NCBI GenBank assembly: GCA_963832575.1
Contig: CAWHUT010000002.1
Location: 125,827 to 189,826, forward strand
DNA length: 64,000 nt
Reading direction: 5' to 3'
From: an uncultured Alphaproteobacteria bacterium
GTDB taxonomy: Bacteria; Pseudomonadota; Alphaproteobacteria; ATCC43930; CGMCC-115725
A program made the translations under genes and the position numbers. This document shows positions 4,294 to 31,919 of the stretch, piece after piece. How positions within the stretch are numbered: the stretch's first letter is position 1; each line of letters opens with the position of its first letter. The notes below the pieces were generated by a model. It worked only from the letters and a program-made list of their open reading frames with translations, did not search any database and was not told where the DNA came from.

Positions 4294-5094
4294 TCAGCGC
4301 GCCGCCCGCTCCTTCAAATTGCACAGCGGGAAGCGGATGACCTCGGCCACGAGTTCGGCGAGGCCGGCGGCGCGCAATTCGGTGAGCCGGGCCCCGCGCC
4401 CGGCATCGGCGTCGGTCGCGTCGCCCAGCGCTCCGGCGGGATTGAGGTCCTGGGTCTGCCACCCGAAGCCGATCCCCGGGCTTTCGGCGCGCAGATATTT
4501 GTATTCCTGTTCCCAGGCGATGGTTGCGGAGGTGAAATTGCGGCGCGCGTCCATCCGGACGAGATCGCCGCGCAGATACATGATCTGCGACGTTTCCGAT
4601 GAGCCGCCATGGATGCCGTGACGGCGCTCGGTCGGCGAGAAGAGATCGGGAATGCTGCCGAGGCTGTTCAAGTTCGTCGCCACCGCGAGCATGCCCAGCC
4701 GCACGCGCAGATCGCGTGCGACGATGTCCATGATCTGCGGCTGGCCGCCGTGGCTGTTCACCATGACGAATTTGGCGATGCCCGCGCGATGGACGCACTC
4801 GCCGATTTCGGTCCACAGCCGGATCAGCGTCTCCGCGCATAGGCTGAGCGTGCCGGGAAACGCCAGGTGCTCGTTCGACTTGCCAACCGGCATCGGCGGC
4901 AGCACCAGCACCGAGGCCGGCATGAGCTTCATCGCGCGGGAGACCGTGCCCTCGTTGATGATCGCATCGACACCGACAGGCAGGTGCGGCCCGTGCTGCT
5001 CGACCGCCGCCACCGGCAGCAATGCCACGGTGCGGTCGCGATCGAGACCGTCGAACTCGGTGGTTGCGAGATCCTGCCAGTAACGAGCCGCCAT
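4294..5094 (-). CDS. Creatininase-family amidohydrolase
   Basis: 266 aa. LPVAAVEQHGPHLPVGVD and HGG...S motifs are typical of the creatinine amidohydrolase family. Confidence 0.85.
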   Translation of the reverse strand: MAARYWQDLATTEFDGLDRDRTVALLPVAAVEQHGPHLPVGVDAIINEGTVSRAMKLMPASVLVLPPMPVGKSNEHLAFPGTLSLCAETLIRLWTEIGECVHRAGIAKFVMVNSHGGQPQIMDIVARDLRVRLGMLAVATNLNSLGSIPDLFSPTERRHGIHGGSSETSQIMYLRGDLVRMDARRNFTSATIAWEQEYKYLRAESPGIGFGWQTQDLNPAGALGDATDADAGRGARLTELRAAGLAELVAEVIRFPLCNLKERAAR

Positions 5095-5211
5095 CAGGGC
5101 ACTTCCTTCGAGGGTAGAAGAGGTATCGCCGCGACGAAGGTCGCAATAGCGCGCCTAGGAGCGGTCCTCGGATGCCGAAACCTCGTCCTATCAAAGCCAA
5201 AGAGGACGATA

Positions 5212-5253
5212 GGAAAAGCATCAATTTTCGCCTAGAGTGATGCATATAAGGCA
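5212..5253 (-). promoter_or_regulatory. Copy C of a conserved 41-42-nt operator-like motif (LysR-type T-N11-A box plus conserved downstream block), oriented toward the creatininase operon
   Basis: The reverse complement TGCCTTATATGCATCACTCTAGGCGAAAATTGATGCTTTTCC aligns with the copies at 6077 and 10881. Confidence 0.45.
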
Positions 5254-5285
5254 GCAGCGGTTTCCGCGAAGAGACGAGGTCGTCC

Positions 5286-6065
5286 ATGGGCGGTATCCGA
5301 TTGGGGTCCAGTCCGGCGAATTCCTGGCATGTATCGGCGCAGTTCGTCGATGCCGTGCGCGATCCGGTGCCACCGGCGCCGATCACGCTCGCCGCCCGGC
5401 CGCAGGATCTGCGCATCGATCTCAGGCGGAGCGCTTTCATCGTCATCGACATGCAGAACGATTTCTGCGCGCCGGGAGGATGGCTCGACCATATCGGCGT
5501 CGACATCGCGCCGGCGCGCCGCCCGATTGCGCCGCTCGCTGCGCTGCTGCCGCTACTGCGCGCGGCCGGAGTGCCCATCCTGTGGGTGAATTGGGGCAAC
5601 CGCCCCGACCGGCTCAATCTCAGCCCGTCGCTGCTGCATGTCTACAACCGGACGGGGGCGACGGTCGGTCTCGGCGACCCGCTGCCGGGAAACGGCGCGC
5701 CGGTGCTGGAAAAGGATAGCTGGGCGGCGGCGATCGTCGACGGCCTGCACCCCGCCGCGGGCGACATTCACATCGACAAGTATCGCATGAGCGGTTTCTG
5801 GGACACGCCCCTCGACAGCATCCTGCGCAATCTCCGCATCAGCACTCTTCTCTTCGGCGGCGTAAACATGGACCAGTGCGTCCTGTGCACGCTCCAGGAC
5901 GCGAATTTCCTGGGCTATGATTGCGTCCTGGTCGAAGATTGCGCGGCGACGACATCGCCGCCCTATTGCCATCAGGCGACGGTCTATAACGTCACGCAAT
6001 GCTTTGGCTTTGTCGCGGTTTCCCAGGACTTGGCGAGCGCCCTGGCCGCCGCGCCGGCAACCTGA
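5286..6065 (+). CDS. Isochorismatase-family cysteine hydrolase (RutB / N-carbamoylsarcosine-amidase-like)
   Basis: FIVIDMQNDFC and GGVNMDQCV (nucleophile Cys) motifs. 259 aa. Confidence 0.85.
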   Translation: MGGIRLGSSPANSWHVSAQFVDAVRDPVPPAPITLAARPQDLRIDLRRSAFIVIDMQNDFCAPGGWLDHIGVDIAPARRPIAPLAALLPLLRAAGVPILWVNWGNRPDRLNLSPSLLHVYNRTGATVGLGDPLPGNGAPVLEKDSWAAAIVDGLHPAAGDIHIDKYRMSGFWDTPLDSILRNLRISTLLFGGVNMDQCVLCTLQDANFLGYDCVLVEDCAATTSPPYCHQATVYNVTQCFGFVAVSQDLASALAAAPAT

Positions 6066-19309: not shown

Positions 19310-19927
19310 ATGATCAGAACTTTTGCGATATTCGCCGCGATTAATCTGTGCCTGCCAACGGCCGCGTGGGCGCAGGCCAATCCATCCGCGGATCAGATCA
19401 TTCGCGCCCTCACGCCGCCGCCGCCCGCGGCAGCGGCGCCAGCGGCGACGGTCGCTGAACCTCCCAAGGCTCCTCCTGCACCGGCCCCTCAAACCACGCC
19501 GGCACCAGCTCCGCAGCCGCCTCCGGCGCCGGCCCCTCAGGCTCCTCCTGCGCCGGCCGTCGTAGCCGCGCCCAGCGCGCCGTCCATCAATCTGTCGATC
19601 GATTTTGCCGCATCCTCGTCACAGCTGACGCCACAGGCGATCGCATCGCTCGATCAGCTCGGAAAAGCGCTGAGCAGCGCGGCGCTGTCGGGGTTTGATT
19701 TCAAGATCGTCGGTCACACCGACACGGTCGGGAACCCGCAATCCAACAAGGCGTTGTCTCTACGACGGGCCGAGGCGGTCAAATCCTACCTGGCGAGTAA
19801 ATACGCGATTGCGCCGTCGCGCCTGCAGGCGAGCGGCGTCGGGGAGGAGGATCTTCTCGTGCCCACGCCGGCCAATACCCCCGAAGCGCGCAATCGCCGA
19901 GTGCAGATCATCAATATCGGCAAGTAA
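19310..19927 (+). CDS. OmpA-family protein with Pro/Ala-rich linker
   Basis: Signal peptide, (APAPQ)-like low-complexity region, then the OmpA_C motif IVGHTDTVGNPQSNKALSLRRAEAV...NRRV. Confidence 0.85.
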   Translation: MIRTFAIFAAINLCLPTAAWAQANPSADQIIRALTPPPPAAAAPAATVAEPPKAPPAPAPQTTPAPAPQPPPAPAPQAPPAPAVVAAPSAPSINLSIDFAASSSQLTPQAIASLDQLGKALSSAALSGFDFKIVGHTDTVGNPQSNKALSLRRAEAVKSYLASKYAIAPSRLQASGVGEEDLLVPTPANTPEARNRRVQIINIGK

Positions 19928-19943
19928 CCGGGAAATACCGCGA

Positions 19944-21371
19944 TCAGAACGCCGAGATCTTGGCGATCAGCCGCCGCCTGAACTCGGCCGCGTCTTCCGG
20001 TCGCTTGATATGGGCGATCAAACGATCCACCAACGTGCGGGCGTCGGGCGCGTCCTTGCTGGCCTGGGAAACCAGGAGCTTGGCGATCGGCCCGATCACG
20101 CGGGCGAGGCCCTCGACGGCCGCTTCCTGTAGCTGTGGGGTGACGGGAAGGGTCGACAAACTGCGATTGTCACCGGCCAGCGAACCCGTTCCGACCTGGG
20201 TGCGCTGTCCTTGCCCGCCATTGACCGAGCCTACGACCGTCCCGGCGGCGCGCGGCGCGCCAACGCCCGACAGCGAACCGGGATCGGCCGGGTGAGCCTT
20301 GAGGAATTCGGCGATCTCCTCCGGTCGGCTCAGCGCCGTGCTCAACATCGCATGAAGCTCGGATAGCGAGGTCGCCGTCTGGGCGGCCTGCTTTACCTTC
20401 ACGCGCGCGATCGGCCCCACGTGGCGGGCGAGGCTCGCTTCGAGCACGCGCAGCTCGTCTGGCGCGAAACGACTCTCTCCCGGCGCGACGGACCGCGCGC
20501 GGGGAACCACCACCGTATCATCGGCCGGCTGTGGCGGCGCGGCCACTTCGACCGCGCTCAACGCGTCGATGAAGCTGTCCGCGGTGGGGAAGCGATCCTC
20601 CGCCCGTTTGGCGAGGCCGCGCCGGATGACCGGCACATAGGCGGCATTCGGCCCGTTCTCCATGTCCGAGAAATCGAGCGGCGCCTGGTCCAGCAGCCGG
20701 GCGATCGTTTCGGCCATGGTGCGGCCGGCAAAAGGCGCCCGCCCGTTCAGGATCTGATAGAGGATGCAGGCGCTGGCGAAGAGATCGGCGCGGTGATCGA
20801 CCGCACTGCCGTTGACCTGTTCCGGCGCCATGTAGTTGGGGGTGCCGAGCATCTCCCCAAGCTGCGTCTGCGAGCCATGCTCGACACGCGCGATGCCGAA
20901 ATCCGTTACCTTGGCTTGTCCCTCGGGCGTGACGATCACGTTGGCCGGCTTGATGTCGCGATGGGTGATATGCTGGGCGTGGGCATAGGCCAGGGCCGCC
21001 AGCATCTGGCGCATCACCGCAAGGCAATCCGTCTGCGCCCGGAGCGTGGGATCGCGCAGGATTTGCGAGAACGGATGCCCCGGGACAAGCTCCATGACGA
21101 TGAAGGGACGGGAAGCGTCGTCGGCGAAATCGAAGATCGCGACAATGTTGGGATGGGCGCAGCGCCCCGCCGCCTGCGCCTCGATCCGGAAGCGCTTCAG
21201 ATATTCCTCGCGAATTTCCGCCTGCAGCACCTCGTCGCGGATCACCTTGATCGCGACGAAGCGTTCGATCAGCGGATCGTGCGCGCGGTAGACCGTGCCG
21301 ACCGCGCCTGATCCGATGATGCCGACGGGTCGGTACCGACCGATCTGATCTGGCAGGCCGCCCTCGCTCAT
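19944..21371 (-). CDS. Hanks-type Ser/Thr protein kinase, soluble, with two C-terminal ~56-aa helical repeats
   Basis: GSGAVGTVY, VAIK, HRDIKPANV, DFG and APE motifs are all intact. No transmembrane segment. The C-terminal repeats share LARxVGPIA(R/K)...RPE(E/D)xAEF. Confidence 0.9.
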   Translation of the reverse strand: MSEGGLPDQIGRYRPVGIIGSGAVGTVYRAHDPLIERFVAIKVIRDEVLQAEIREEYLKRFRIEAQAAGRCAHPNIVAIFDFADDASRPFIVMELVPGHPFSQILRDPTLRAQTDCLAVMRQMLAALAYAHAQHITHRDIKPANVIVTPEGQAKVTDFGIARVEHGSQTQLGEMLGTPNYMAPEQVNGSAVDHRADLFASACILYQILNGRAPFAGRTMAETIARLLDQAPLDFSDMENGPNAAYVPVIRRGLAKRAEDRFPTADSFIDALSAVEVAAPPQPADDTVVVPRARSVAPGESRFAPDELRVLEASLARHVGPIARVKVKQAAQTATSLSELHAMLSTALSRPEEIAEFLKAHPADPGSLSGVGAPRAAGTVVGSVNGGQGQRTQVGTGSLAGDNRSLSTLPVTPQLQEAAVEGLARVIGPIAKLLVSQASKDAPDARTLVDRLIAHIKRPEDAAEFRRRLIAKISAF

Positions 21372-21413
21372 GTCCGGACCGTCATCGCAAGAGCGCCAAG
21401 AAATTCGCGGCTT

Positions 21414-22283
21414 CTATTGCAACATCTGCAGGGCGCTATCGAGGCTTCGCCGCATGCGCGAGAACGACGCCGTGAGTGAGGCGATCTCGTCCGACCCTTT
21501 TGGCTCGAATTCCGCGACATCGGTCTGACCCTGACTGACCGCTTCGGCAAGGCTCGCGACCCTCACCACCGGCTTGATGATGACATAGTGAAGCAATACG
21601 TTGATGAGCACCAGCACCGCCACGAACATGACAAGCAAGGCAATCATGACGTCCAGAAAAGCGCCGTGCGCCTTTGCCAGGGCAACAGTCATCGGCACGG
21701 AAACGATCTGGGCGCCGACGGTTTCGTGAAGCTTCCAGCCAAAGCCGTTGGCCGAGCCGTACTTGGCGATCATCGAGGCCGGCGCCACCGAGGGGGTGGA
21801 ATGGCAGGCCAGGCACGTCACGTCCGTCACCGAGATCGGCTCGGCGAGATTGAGGGCTTCACCCGTGGGCGTGATGCGCGTCCCGATCAGTTCGGTCGAG
21901 CCGGGCTGGTTGCGAAAATGCTGAATGAAATCCGCCTGCCAGTCCGTCGGCCGGTTCGCCGGATTGGTGGGATTGAGCGCCGTCTCGACCAGCGCATAGT
22001 TCGGGAACGCCTTGTGCATCAGGTCGAAGGTCTGTTTCGCGGCAAAGAAGGGAATGCCCGCCGATTGGAACACGCTTTGATCGGTTCCGGTGAGCAACGG
22101 CACGATCTCGCTGTCGGTATAGCTCTTCACGGCATTGGCCGCGCTCATCATCACGCGCGCGTTCTCCAGAACGTCCTGGCGCGCATTGGCGATGAAGAGA
22201 TTGTTGAGAAGCACGCCGATGCCGATGTAGCCGATGCCGAAAGCGATCAGGATCGTGATGTTGAATTTTGCCCGCAGTCGCAT
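21414..22283 (-). CDS. Membrane sensor: periplasmic DUF3365 (Tll0287-like c-type haem) domain plus HAMP, with no output domain
   Basis: TM1 (ITILIAFGIGYIGIGVLL). NPTNPANRPTDW...CLACH (CxxCH)...VGAQIVSVP matches DUF3365. TM2 is followed by HAMP (VVRVASLAEAVSQGQ...EIASLTASFSRM), and the protein ends there. Confidence 0.75.
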   Translation of the reverse strand: MRLRAKFNITILIAFGIGYIGIGVLLNNLFIANARQDVLENARVMMSAANAVKSYTDSEIVPLLTGTDQSVFQSAGIPFFAAKQTFDLMHKAFPNYALVETALNPTNPANRPTDWQADFIQHFRNQPGSTELIGTRITPTGEALNLAEPISVTDVTCLACHSTPSVAPASMIAKYGSANGFGWKLHETVGAQIVSVPMTVALAKAHGAFLDVMIALLVMFVAVLVLINVLLHYVIIKPVVRVASLAEAVSQGQTDVAEFEPKGSDEIASLTASFSRMRRSLDSALQMLQ

Positions 22284-22348: not shown

Positions 22349-22915
22349 TCATTTGGCGGCGGACTCCCCGGCCAATGTCTGCTTCAACCAGGGGGTCTGC
22401 TGGGCGCCCGGAAGCGAAAAAAGGCTCATCGGGGCAAACGTCTTCCAGTCGATCGCTTGTTCGGTCTTGCGGTCGAGCGAGACGGTGAAGGCAGAATTAT
22501 CCACATTCTTGCCGCCGGCGCCGCGGACGGCGATCACGCCGGCATAGGTCGCGGACTGGACTTCAGCCTTGGCAAAGTCGGCCTGGATGTCGTTGGTCAG
22601 AGCCGCCGCCATATAGGCGAGGGTGTAGTAGGCCGGGCGCTGGAGCACATCGACGCGCTGGTCGTCGGAAAGCGCCTTCAGATCCGACGAAATCAGGAAG
22701 TATCGGCTGACATCGGCCTCGGCGCAGGACATCGTCCGATCGATTTTTGCGTCCTTCGCGGCGACGGTGTCGGCGCAGACGGGGGCGGCTCGGGCCGGCG
22801 TTGCCGCGGCCAGGCCCATCGCACACGCACCGGCGAGCGCCGGCAAGAGAAGCACGGCGGACCACCGCCGCGAAAGGCGCCAAATCGCGCCCGGATCGCT
22901 CAAGCCGCTTGTCAC
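22349..22915 (-). CDS. Exported hypothetical protein
   Basis: 188 aa with signal-like RRWSAVLLLPALAGACAMGLAAATPARA. No motif recognised. Same strand as, and immediately upstream of, the DUF3365-HAMP gene. Confidence 0.5.
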   Translation of the reverse strand: MTSGLSDPGAIWRLSRRWSAVLLLPALAGACAMGLAAATPARAAPVCADTVAAKDAKIDRTMSCAEADVSRYFLISSDLKALSDDQRVDVLQRPAYYTLAYMAAALTNDIQADFAKAEVQSATYAGVIAVRGAGGKNVDNSAFTVSLDRKTEQAIDWKTFAPMSLFSLPGAQQTPWLKQTLAGESAAK

Positions 22916-23130: not shown

Positions 23131-24162
23131 TTACAGGCCCTTGAGGATTGCTTGCCGCTTCTCTTGGTATTCGTCCGGAGTGATGAGCCCGCGGTCCCGC
23201 AACGCCTGCAACTGGGCAAGTCTCTCCGCGGCTCCCGCCGGCAGCGTCTGGTCGGCAGCCGCATCGTCGGTCTGATCGGTCGGCGCCGCGGCGGACGCGC
23301 CGGCTCCGGCCTTGTCTTGCAGCTCCATCGAACGTTCCCTGACCCGATTCCCGAAATCTTCGCTGAGCGGGGCGATGGCGACCGGGAGCGCCGGATGGGC
23401 CTGCATCGGTGCCTCGGTCTTGTCGGCGCTGCTGCCGACGACGTTGACCGCGCGGAGCGAATTGAGGAATTGGGCGGCGCGCAACGCACCCGCCGGCGTC
23501 GCCATCGTCTCCAGCCGCATCGAGCATTGGGCGCGCCAATATGTACGCAGGGTCACGACCGCTTCTGACGGCGGGAGGGCCTCGGCGTCGAGTTCGCTGT
23601 AGCTGCCGAGCGGGGTGCCCTCGACAAAGGCCGAGCGGCGAATGCGCATGTGCGACGTATCCAAGAAGCGCGCCGTCTGCGCCATGACCGCGTCGGCGGT
23701 GGATTTGGTGGTCCGGGACAGGTCGCCGGACTTGGCGCAAAAGCACTCGGCCGCCTCGTAATAATCGTTATCGCGCACCTGGCGCGCCTCCTCGAACGAG
23801 GCGAGGTCGGAGGCGCTCGTGCGCGCCGGCTCGGACCGGCCGCTGAAGGTGACGGAAAGGTCGGAGCATTTCTGCGAAGACCACTCCTCGCGCACGGGGA
23901 GCTCGAGCGGCGGCAGGGCGAATGACTGCGGCGCAGTGTCGGCCACTTGCGCAGCGGCCGGAGCCGGTTGCGCCGGCGCGACGGCCGTCTGAGCCGGCAC
24001 CACCGCCGTTTGAGCGGTCTCGGCCGGCGCCACCGACTTGACGGCGTTGCCATATCCGTAATAGCCGGAATAGCCGGATCCGTAATAGCTGGCCGGATCG
24101 ACACAGCCAACAAGCATTGCAGAGCACAGTCCCGCGACCAGCAGCGCAGTATGCCCTTGCAT
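23131..24162 (-). CDS. Lipoprotein with Tyr/Gly-rich N-terminus and C-terminal SHOCT domain
   Basis: Lipobox LVGC after MQGHTALLVAGLCSAM. SYYGSGYSGYYGYG tract. C-terminal LAQLQALRDRGLITPDEYQEKRQAIL is a typical SHOCT motif. Confidence 0.6.
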   Translation of the reverse strand: MQGHTALLVAGLCSAMLVGCVDPASYYGSGYSGYYGYGNAVKSVAPAETAQTAVVPAQTAVAPAQPAPAAAQVADTAPQSFALPPLELPVREEWSSQKCSDLSVTFSGRSEPARTSASDLASFEEARQVRDNDYYEAAECFCAKSGDLSRTTKSTADAVMAQTARFLDTSHMRIRRSAFVEGTPLGSYSELDAEALPPSEAVVTLRTYWRAQCSMRLETMATPAGALRAAQFLNSLRAVNVVGSSADKTEAPMQAHPALPVAIAPLSEDFGNRVRERSMELQDKAGAGASAAAPTDQTDDAAADQTLPAGAAERLAQLQALRDRGLITPDEYQEKRQAILKGL

Positions 24163-24339
24163 AACCCACCTCCCCCGGACGCGGACCCATCGCAAGCACC
24201 GGGCGATTTGCGCGCAAAGTTCCGCGATTCCCCACCAAAACTATACGCATGGCCCCGCAAATATGCAACGCGCGAGTCATTTATAAGTGATGTTCAGGGG
24301 CCTTGTGACGCGTGCCGATGCAAGAGCCGGCGGCCAATT

Positions 24340-24894
24340 CTATTGCGGCTGTGGCGCTGCCGGAGCAGCCGGTTTCACGTTCCAAGGAGTTGGCACAATA
24401 CTCGGAACAGCCGGCGCCGCTTTCCAAGGAGTTGGGGCAGCACTCTGAGAACTCGGTTCAGGGTCAGCCGGGGCCGGTGCCACGCTTGGCGCCGCCGGTG
24501 CGATCCAAGGAGCCGGTGGCGGGCCCGAAGGCACTCCTAGCGAACTCGAACCCGCGGGCGCTCGATTCGGCAAAAGCGGCGCAACGTTGGTCGCCGGCGT
24601 CAGCGCAGCGGTCGGTGGCAGGGCAGCAGGAGCGCTGGGATAGGAATAGCTGGGATAGGGATAGGAATATGAATAGGCGTAGGGATACGAATAGGGATAG
24701 GAATACGCGTAAGCGTATGACGGGACGACGGCGAAACCGGGCGAGACGCGACCGCCCCGCCAACCACCACCACCGTACCACCCTGCCCCGCCACGCGCGT
24801 AGGACGGCGATGCGAATCCGACGGCGAGGATCACCGCAAGGGCGATCCTGGTCCGCGGAATCACCCCTCGGCGTCGAAACAATGGCATCGTCAC
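24340..24894 (-). CDS. Exported low-complexity Tyr/Pro/Ser-rich protein (hypothetical)
   Basis: Signal peptide RTRIALAVILAVGFASPSYA, then GWYGGGGWRGG, YAYAYSYPYSYPYAYSYSYPYPSYSYP and three TPW/APW repeats. Codon usage is atypical (TAT preferred), and the opposite strand is also open, so coding status is uncertain. Confidence 0.45.
   Translation of the reverse strand: MTMPLFRRRGVIPRTRIALAVILAVGFASPSYARGGAGWYGGGGWRGGRVSPGFAVVPSYAYAYSYPYSYPYAYSYSYPYPSYSYPSAPAALPPTAALTPATNVAPLLPNRAPAGSSSLGVPSGPPPAPWIAPAAPSVAPAPADPEPSSQSAAPTPWKAAPAVPSIVPTPWNVKPAAPAAPQPQ
24637..24720. repeat. Imperfect short tandem repeat (GGATAG/GAATAG-type hexamers) that encodes the (Y-P/S)n tract
   Basis: gggataggaatagctgggatagggataggaatatgaataggcgtagggatacgaatagggataggaatacgcg is visibly periodic. 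Confidence 0.6.

Positions 24895-25561: not shown

Positions 25562-31919
<6,358 letters not shown>

Follow-up and report, generated by a model that had tools for sequence, protein, structure and literature searches.

A probable Cache_heme-HAMP receptor with a docked Ser/Thr kinase in an uncultured alphaproteobacterium, and its docking module in related loci

The window of this study is a stretch of 64,000 nucleotides (nt) from an uncultured alphaproteobacterium (GenBank assembly GCA_963832575.1, contig CAWHUT010000002.1, positions 125,827 to 189,826), and the locus in question, at positions 19944 to 22283, consists of two genes on the minus strand (Table 1). The upstream gene encodes a membrane-bound heme c sensor that ends with its HAMP domain, and the downstream gene encodes a soluble Hanks-type Ser/Thr kinase with a repeated C-terminal extension. 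Taken together, the sequences, the predicted folds, and the analogy to an experimentally studied pair from Pseudomonas azotoformans make it likely that the two proteins form a non-covalent receptor-kinase complex of a Cache_heme-HAMP (CHH) receptor and a Ser/Thr kinase. The window proteins themselves contribute their architecture, motifs, predicted folds, and a conserved gene linkage. The host is a soil bacterium of high GC content, the closest named relatives of which are metagenome-assembled genomes (MAGs) of Rhodospirillales/Acetobacteraceae; the window sequence was present in metagenomic DNA runs from soil, sediment, and rhizosphere only, and no RNA run was found to hold it.

Table 1. Coordinates of the receptor, the kinase, their parts, and the adjoining upstream gene in the window (ORF, open reading frame; aa, amino acids; TM, transmembrane helix; AF2, AlphaFold2)
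Feature	Position	Strand	Basis or remark
CHH receptor gene, 289 aa	21414..22283	(-)	ORF; PF11845 and PF00672; AF2 model; Foldseek
TM1, aa 6-32	22188..22268	(-)	Hydropathy ≥1.6; within continuous model helix aa 3-64
Periplasmic Tll0287-like/sCache_heme domain, aa 33-197	21693..22187	(-)	Pfam and AF2 strands
CLACH heme c attachment motif, C157/C160/H161	21801..21815	(-)	Sequence reading
TM2, about aa 205-230	21594..21671	(-)	Hydropathy; continuous model helix aa 199-250 into HAMP AS1
C-terminal HAMP, aa 231-288	21420..21593	(-)	Pfam and AF2 model
Thr254, start of HAMP connector; candidate counterpart of P. azotoformans Thr256	21522..21524	(-)	Model position
Soluble Hanks-type Ser/Thr kinase with two putative C-terminal HAMP-docking modules, 475 aa	19944..21371	(-)	ORF, Pfam, AF2
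Kinase catalytic domain, aa 11-277	20541..21341	(-)	Pkinase, motifs, identity to P. azotoformans kinase
Putative docking module 1, aa 301-360, small helical bundle	20292..20471	(-)	AF2 helices; recognition helix
Putative recognition helix 1 VGPIARVKVKQAAQ, aa 318-331	20379-20420	(-)	Sequence reading
Putative docking module 2, aa 405-475	19947..20159	(-)	AF2 helices; recognition helix
Putative recognition helix 2 IGPIAKLLVSQASK, aa 426-439	20055-20096	(-)	Sequence reading
188-aa protein, hydrophobic N-terminal segment, probably secreted	22349..22915	(-)	65 nt upstream of receptor

The receptor consists of TM1, a Tll0287/DUF3365-type heme c domain with the motif CLACH, TM2, and a HAMP domain, after which the gene stops; a preliminary description of the locus had read this order from the letters, and ORF, Pfam, and hydropathy agree with it. 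Pfam places the Tll0287-like domain (PF11845) at aa 33 to 197 (E value, 8.7e-33) and HAMP (PF00672) at aa 231 to 281 (E value, 4.7e-07), and no domain C-terminal of HAMP was found in the Pfam scan of the protein, which ends at aa 289. Among the NCBIfam models only partial matches to the HAMP regions of histidine kinases and chemoreceptors were obtained, all of them well under the cutoffs. Two segments are hydrophobic, aa 6 to 32 and aa 200 to 243. The receptor has only two cysteines, both within C157-L-A-C160-H161, and hence no axial Cys; this CxxCH motif is invariant in all 81 aligned receptors. Two methionines in the periplasmic helix after TM1, M45/M46 (codons at 22146-22151), are conserved in 71 of the 81 and could, judged from the sequence, be a candidate distal heme ligand, which would fit the six-coordinate spectra of the homologue.

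In the AF2 model of the receptor (predicted local distance difference test [pLDDT], 87.6) TM1 continues into the periplasm as one long helix, and strands at aa 97 to 102, 132 to 138, 141 to 151, and 188 to 197 make up a Cache-like sheet, with the CxxCH helix (aa 155 to 161) inserted between the third and the fourth. The HAMP domain comprises AS1 up to about aa 250, a connector (aa 251 to 265), and AS2 (aa 266 to 288). AS2 carries FSRMRRSL, a version of a near-invariant FNRMRRSL-type motif, and its residues R276, M277, S280, and L281 are conserved in 79 to 81 of the 81 receptors. The best Foldseek match of the model is Tll0287 (5b82; E value, 7.3e-08; TM-score, 0.74), and CitA-type Cache domains, GSU0935, and the HAMP domain of Af1503 were matched as well. 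The last of these is also the closest solved HAMP domain by sequence (PDB 4gn0/2l7h; E value with the family profile, 2e-08) and the only match of the receptor in the PDB sequence search. The sensor domain had initially been regarded as PAS-like, but DUF3365 is now classified as a Cache domain (sCache_heme) into which a CxxCH element of cytochrome origin is inserted (PMC12889525).

A search of 5.8 billion proteins returned 3,564 relatives of the receptor at an E value of ≤1e-5. Of the best 120, from which the lengths were taken, nearly all have a length of about 290 aa and terminate with the same HAMP domain, so that the stop after HAMP is genuine and not the result of a truncation. CxxCH and large portions of HAMP are invariant among the homologues.

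A gap of 42 nt separates the receptor gene from the kinase gene downstream, and the two share strand and frame. The Pkinase domain (aa 15 to 229; E value, 2.9e-49) contains the motifs GSGAVG, VAIK (K42), HRDIKPAN, DFG, and APE, and the NCBIfam model PknB_PASTA_kin aligns with aa 11 to 281, albeit with 256 bits compared to a family cutoff of 450. No membrane anchor was found in the kinase, the maximal 19-residue hydropathy being 1.32 at a threshold of 1.6, and the short gap, the catalytic motifs, and the soluble nature of the kinase, all noted beforehand, are thus borne out by ORF, Pfam, and hydropathy. The C-terminal 185 aa gave only noise in a scan with a Pfam set lacking PF26309; precomputed database annotations place the label PF26309/DUF8082 on the corresponding region of kinase homologues. 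Two repeats are present in this region, with one [VI]GPIA[RK] helix apiece (aa 318 and aa 426), and in 55 aligned kinase homologues the residues G319, P320, G427, P428, and A430 do not vary. In the AF2 model (mean pLDDT, 82.4) the catalytic domain is confident up to aa 277, and two further confident modules (aa 304 to 359 and aa 412 to 474) accompany low-confidence, disordered linkers at aa 287 to 297 and aa 365 to 403. The helices of module 1 span aa 304 to 332, 336 to 344, and 350 to 359 (pLDDT, 88 to 96 per 10-residue block), and those of module 2 span aa 412 to 440, 444 to 452, and 458 to 474. A PDB sequence search with the docking region gave no match.

The author of the preliminary description was not aware of a described example of such a pair, but one is found in a preprint by Deshpande, Xu, Dunleavy, Zhulin, and Crane, posted on 28 May 2026, which names the CHH receptor and investigates that of P. 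azotoformans together with the Ser/Thr kinase encoded downstream in its operon (bioRxiv 10.64898/2026.05.25.727664). According to its authors, CHH receptors nearly always have a Ser/Thr kinase directly up- or downstream, and a PP2C phosphatase is sometimes located nearby (bioRxiv 10.64898/2026.05.25.727664). The P. azotoformans kinase is composed of a PknB-like domain, a linker of about 30 residues, and two related small helical bundles with a second linker between them; the full-length protein binds the receptor with a dissociation constant of about 90 nM, independently of ATP and in a ratio of one kinase per receptor dimer, and binding is abolished without the C terminus (bioRxiv 10.64898/2026.05.25.727664). 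Cryo-electron microscopy at 3.47 Å placed the two bundles pseudo-symmetrically on the two HAMP subunits via the helices IGPLARFLVRKSLN and IGPIARIVVSRALR (bioRxiv 10.64898/2026.05.25.727664). The kinase requires Mn2+; it modifies Thr256, where the HAMP connector begins, and phosphorylation is faster with nitric oxide (NO) on the ferrous heme than in the ferric or ferrous state, whereas the Fe(II)/Fe(III) redox change has a much smaller effect on phosphorylation than NO (bioRxiv 10.64898/2026.05.25.727664). The receptor of P. azotoformans is devoid of the axial Cys ligand of Tll0287, which is also present in a Pseudomonas putida protein, unlike in signaling-type receptors; its NO off-rate is 6e-4 per s, and it forms no stable O2 complex (PMC12889525). 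Heme binding, NO binding, the complex, its stoichiometry, and the NO-enhanced phosphorylation are established for this homologue only. With respect to the redox or gas signal that had been proposed for the window receptor, the gas part holds in P. azotoformans, namely for NO, and the redox part to a much smaller extent.

At the sequence level, the window pair carries the described features of the CHH/kinase system and thereby supports the generality claimed in the preprint. Both receptors consist of a transmembrane helix, an sCache_heme domain with CxxCH and no axial Cys, a second transmembrane helix, and a terminal HAMP domain; both kinases combine a PknB-like domain, devoid of transmembrane and PASTA segments, with two helical modules that contain an IGP[IL]A[RK] helix, and in both organisms the kinase gene lies immediately downstream of the gene for the receptor. 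The catalytic domain of the window kinase is 44% identical (E value, 1e-73) to that of P. azotoformans, the sequence of which was taken from the printed Fig. S2 of the preprint and contains a few machine-reading errors. The AF2 model of the window kinase, with its catalytic domain, two confident helical bundles, and disordered linkers, agrees with the description of the kinase in the preprint. Recognition helix 2 reads IGPIAKLLVSQASK in the window and IGPIARIVVSRALR in P. azotoformans, and recognition helix 1 is more diverged (VGPIARVKVKQAAQ versus IGPLARFLVRKSLN). Thr254 of the window receptor, at the first connector positions of HAMP in the model, is a candidate counterpart of Thr256 in P. 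azotoformans. The two systems differ in their hosts, the preprint discussing gamma- and betaproteobacteria in contrast to the high-GC relative of Rhodospirillales/Acetobacteraceae MAGs studied here, and in the lineage-specific gene for a probably secreted 188-aa protein that lies upstream of the window pair.

The linkage of the two genes was assessed in a scan of one genome per species, in which at least 529 species had a receptor gene; 80 loci were kept, with labels from Alpha-, Beta-, and Gammaproteobacteria, Methylomirabilota/Rokubacteria, and Thermoanaerobaculia. Partner genes were detected by tblastn and subsequently with an iterated profile built from the C-terminal 185 aa of the window kinase. 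A gene with the C-terminal module directly adjoins the receptor gene in 75 of the 80 loci and in 75 of the 75 in which this was testable. Four loci were left out of the score because their contigs break off in, or a little past, the start of the downstream gene (L038, L051, L052, and L064, in three of which the start of a kinase is visible), as was L026, whose receptor is 374 nt away from the start of its contig and which is a near-duplicate of L025, where the partner is upstream. Receptor-partner adjacency is far above chance, and the invariant neighbor of the receptor family is the C-terminal module rather than the kinase domain. The suggestion that the HAMP stub signals non-covalently to the kinase, perhaps through its C-terminal repeats, is supported by this linkage and by the demonstration in P. 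azotoformans. In the closest relative (L081/L082), the receptor is 80% and the kinase 78% identical; receptor, kinase, and the upstream 188-aa gene are retained there, whereas the outer flanking genes differ. Cultivable relatives with the system are, for example, Rhodopila globiformis, Virgifigura deserti, and strains of Variovorax or Dyella. Moreover, the HAMP sequences of the receptors group by partner type.

By analogy, the window receptor would be a membrane dimer whose sCache_heme domain carries a covalent c-type heme on C157 and C160, with H161 as the proximal ligand and no axial Cys, and whose sole cytoplasmic part would be the four-helix bundle of HAMP. One kinase would dock per HAMP dimer (2:1 receptor-kinase), each of its two pseudo-symmetric DUF8082 modules contacting one HAMP subunit through an IGPIA[RK]-type helix, and the catalytic domain would be tethered via the flexible linker. 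A periplasmic small heme ligand, most likely NO, would change the conformation of HAMP, and this change would alter phosphorylation by the tethered kinase. Phosphorylation in the homologue is directed at the Thr where the HAMP connector begins, and the equivalent position of the window receptor is predicted to hold Thr254. It is from P. azotoformans that we infer the behavior of the window proteins, NO as the physiological signal, and every downstream output.

Several observations weigh against this interpretation. The support for the window pair comes from sequence, predicted fold, and linkage, the experiments from the P. azotoformans homologue, and the supporting literature from two preprints of one group. 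The correspondence of Thr254 and Thr256 is deduced from the model position and the description in the preprint rather than from an alignment of the two receptors. A Thr is present in this column in only 8 of the 81 receptors, and among the 41 loci with a kinase partner in 2, and owing to this rarity receptor phosphorylation at the connector cannot be the general output of the family. A PP2C gene is located near the P. azotoformans pair, but none was seen among the annotated flanking genes of the window. Finally, the preprint authors consider direct control of the catalytic domain unlikely because of its flexible tether (bioRxiv 10.64898/2026.05.25.727664). An alternative is that docking is real, but that the receptor chiefly serves a constitutively active kinase as its membrane anchor and substrate; the heme state would then change the accessibility of the HAMP Thr, as a feedback or adaptation mark, and the signal would exit in another way. 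We regard this version as possible but rather unlikely. In its favor, the isolated catalytic domain of P. azotoformans likewise phosphorylates the NO-bound receptor faster, and the authors favor the view that the receptor alters the substrate quality of HAMP and does not allosterically switch the catalytic domain (bioRxiv 10.64898/2026.05.25.727664). The occurrence of the docking module on quite different effectors elsewhere would also fit a generic recruitment device. The poor conservation of the connector Thr, however, makes receptor phosphorylation an unlikely conserved purpose, and the strict conservation of an output-less HAMP beside an effector argues for a transfer of information to that effector. 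The pair had been introduced as a possible split receptor kinase, an idea that the data support; given that the preprint authors favor an altered HAMP substrate, it may be a receptor kinase in the strict sense or else a kinase that is merely tethered and acts on a substrate whose state depends on the ligand.

The complex might also be as described but respond in the soil bacterium to an input other than NO, for instance periplasmic redox, another diatomic or small heme ligand, or a signal from the 188-aa protein, a variant that we judge doubtful. The preprint allows for another heme ligand than NO (bioRxiv 10.64898/2026.05.25.727664), M45/M46 could serve as the sixth ligand in the 71 of 81 receptors that conserve them, and the lineage-specific gene for the probably secreted protein is co-conserved with the pair; on the other hand, the NO off-rate of the P. 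azotoformans receptor is typical of NO sensors, it forms no stable O2 complex and shows little redox effect, and the window receptor likewise lacks an axial Cys. Two further explanations deny the complex altogether. Strong PADLOC matches to PD-T4-6 (best E value, 6.5e-85) raised the question of whether the kinase protects against phages on its own, as a Ser/Thr kinase of this type, with an incidental adjacency to a sensor. Most of these models, including that of the strongest match, cover the generic Hanks domain only (about aa 10 to 290), whereas the C-terminal modules and the receptor linkage are kept in all 75 testable loci and the homologous kinase binds its receptor with nanomolar affinity, which renders this explanation very improbable. 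Membership in PD-T4-6 was rejected on account of the restriction of the matches to the catalytic domain and of the neighbors, which are the sensor, an OmpA-like protein, and metabolic and signaling genes. The view that the sensor arose by truncation of a histidine kinase or chemoreceptor, as a pseudogene or an assembly artifact in a chance pairing, could draw only on the general rule that HAMP normally precedes an output domain. There are thousands of homologues, nearly all of the best 120 share the length and the end residue, HAMP AS2 is almost invariant, and the partner gene is conserved; this notion is barely conceivable and was rejected on the basis of the homologue lengths and ends and of the conserved partner. 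We thus retain the non-covalent CHH receptor-kinase complex as the likely interpretation.

The partners of the CHH receptors are not confined to kinases. Among the 75 loci, a kinase with modules was found in 42, plus L008 with a fragmented kinase, and an apparent receptor-kinase fusion in 1 (L002). Proteins of 660 to 813 aa that combine a kinase, a class III cyclase-like domain, and the modules are encoded in 8 loci (L037, L045, L048, L054, L063, L071, L073, and L075), and a cyclase-like domain with modules (about 370 aa; Guanylate_cyc E values, 1e-6 to 9e-8, a partial match) is encoded in 9 (L021, L022, L031, L044, L047, L059, L068, L069, and L076), in each case directly downstream of the receptor. 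A TIR domain with a module is present in 15 loci (TIR_2 E values, 1e-17 to 5e-21). Seven of these genes follow the receptor gene directly on its downstream side and come from Dyella/Rhodanobacter isolates and gammaproteobacterial MAGs (L028, L034, L036, L053, L062, L067, and L074), and eight lie upstream and divergent, in alphaproteobacterial MAGs (L016, L020, L023, L025, L027, L029, L032, and L039). Pairwise BLASTP of the partner modules with those of the window kinase gave E values of 8e-15 for the cyclase type and of 8e-09 and 1e-06 for the TIR types. Two GPxA helices are present in 31 of 41 kinase-type partners and in nearly all of the cyclase type, which would give one effector per receptor dimer. 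Exactly one is present in 15 of 15 TIR partners, and with this single copy each HAMP dimer would bring together two TIR domains, whose association might plausibly be gated in this way.

When 1.84 billion cluster representatives were searched with the C terminus of the window kinase, 658 proteins were obtained at an E value of ≤0.001. According to Pfam, 42 of the best 145 contain a kinase, 8 a cyclase, and 3 a TIR domain, which is indicative only, given that about 90 of the 145 had no Pfam match at an E value of ≤1e-4 and that many short ones resemble kinase fragments. Neither TIR partners nor cyclases with a docking module are mentioned in the text of the two preprints, where cyclases appear only as sensor-fused domains, although a gene-neighborhood figure outside the searchable text may show such neighbors, and no mention of DUF8082 was found in other literature. 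We consider it somewhat more probable that the DUF8082 module is a portable HAMP-docking adaptor, which lets output-less CHH receptors drive interchangeable effectors, than that it is a kinase accessory. Its modular use with cyclase-like and TIR effectors may go beyond the text of the preprint; it is seen in related loci, and the window represents the ordinary kinase version.

Some loci show deviating arrangements. In L002 (6001-8361), receptor, kinase, and modules form one ORF of 786 aa that lacks a stop codon behind ...RMLE. The fusion may be natural; it comes from a MAG record, however, and one inserted G would convert an overlap of the form ...LES-stop/ATGA into such a fusion. The receptor-adjacent kinase of L008 (6922-8012) is split into several short ORFs, and these frameshifts point to a decaying gene or to assembly errors. 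One receptor is accompanied by a kinase upstream and a cyclase-like protein downstream in L076 (3888-7993), and another is surrounded by two kinases in L040 (4953-10034), which suggests competition for, or alternation on, one HAMP domain.

The components of the system resemble those of several known ones. The Geobacter chemoreceptors GSU0582/GSU0935 and the stand-alone protein Tll0287 have in common with the window receptor a periplasmic Cache-type fold with an inserted CxxCH heme c element, and the receptor model matches 5b82 and 3b42. In the fused sCache_heme sensors, however, the output (a methyl-accepting chemotaxis protein module, a histidine kinase, or a cyclase) is covalently attached, and Tll0287 has no signaling part, whereas the window receptor is accompanied by a separate kinase; Tll0287 furthermore exhibits Cys/His ligation, while the window receptor has no spare Cys. 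Af1503 of Archaeoglobus fulgidus, which we take to be a receptor ending with its HAMP domain, corresponds to the window receptor in having HAMP as the last domain without an attached output, and the AS2 sequences RLRRSL (Af1503) and RMRRSL (window) have the stretch R[LM]RRSL in common. Af1503 is archaeal, however, and has a different extracytoplasmic domain; to our knowledge, no partner of it has been identified. Receptor kinases of the PknB/Stk1 type contain the same Hanks catalytic domain as the window kinase, but in PknB one polypeptide also comprises the transmembrane helix and the PASTA sensors outside the cell, whereas sensor and kinase are separate in the window and would be joined by the docking module. 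The H-NOX/NosP sensors are, like the CHH pair, heme NO sensors encoded beside a separate enzyme on which they act non-covalently. They are cytoplasmic, bind heme b, and target histidine kinases or cyclic-di-GMP enzymes, in contrast to the window system, which is periplasmic, carries a heme c motif, would signal across the membrane via HAMP, and has a Ser/Thr kinase as its partner.

With respect to the flanking genes, the 188-aa protein upstream of the receptor had no Pfam, NCBIfam, or PADLOC match. A homologue with 68% identity occupies the same position in the closest relative (L081/L082), and next to the receptors of the other 80 loci none was detected. As the gene keeps its position while the outer flanks differ, it is probably the first of a three-gene unit in the window lineage. 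Another family of probably secreted proteins of about 170 to 350 aa is encoded upstream of the receptor in 22 loci (e.g., L017 at 114-743, L018 at 5011-5985, and L022 at 5494-5967), at a distance of 9 to 256 nt or with a slight overlap with the receptor start; it occurs with partners of the kinase and cyclase types and has no Pfam match. The 188-aa protein was considered as a member of this family, but no similarity was detected. Elsewhere, the receptor is preceded by a FecR-domain protein (L056 and L061) or by a caspase and peptidoglycan-binding protein (L009 according to Pfam, with homologues in L010 and L035).

On the pair's other side, an OmpA-family peptidoglycan-binding protein is encoded on the plus strand at 19310-19927, convergent with the kinase gene and with 16 nt between the stop codons; a 36%-identical OmpA-like gene follows directly after the kinase of L009 on the same strand. 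Upstream of the three-gene unit are the minus-strand genes for a 354-aa protein with a C-terminal SHOCT domain (23131-24195) and for a Pro/Tyr-rich repeat protein with a hydrophobic N terminus (YSYPYSYPYAYSYSYPYP...; 24340-24894). The region 25562-31919 on the plus strand encodes a very large hybrid histidine kinase with at least nine HAMP repeats, GAF, HisKA, and HATPase domains, and three receiver domains, which is divided into two ORFs around position 26346. The split results from one extra G within a repeat (GAGATTCTT-G-CAGCTCAAG; EILQLKE expected) and represents a frameshift, a pseudogene, or a sequencing error. A promoter and terminator scan revealed no promoter-like site, and terminator-like sites were at the level of shuffled sequences.

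Since the system has been described very recently, the interest of the window pair as such is modest. It exemplifies that a CHH receptor with a docked kinase, studied in one Pseudomonas species, is also encoded in an alphaproteobacterium-like soil bacterium with all described sequence features intact. The family carries a periplasmic heme c signal, probably NO, across the membrane, it shows a role of HAMP as the last domain of a protein, and it links gas sensing to Ser/Thr phosphorylation. If the wider pattern of kinases, cyclase-like proteins, and TIR proteins holds, the docking module would be a general plug-in interface between HAMP and separate effectors. This would represent a new principle of HAMP signaling, which might be reused in engineering.

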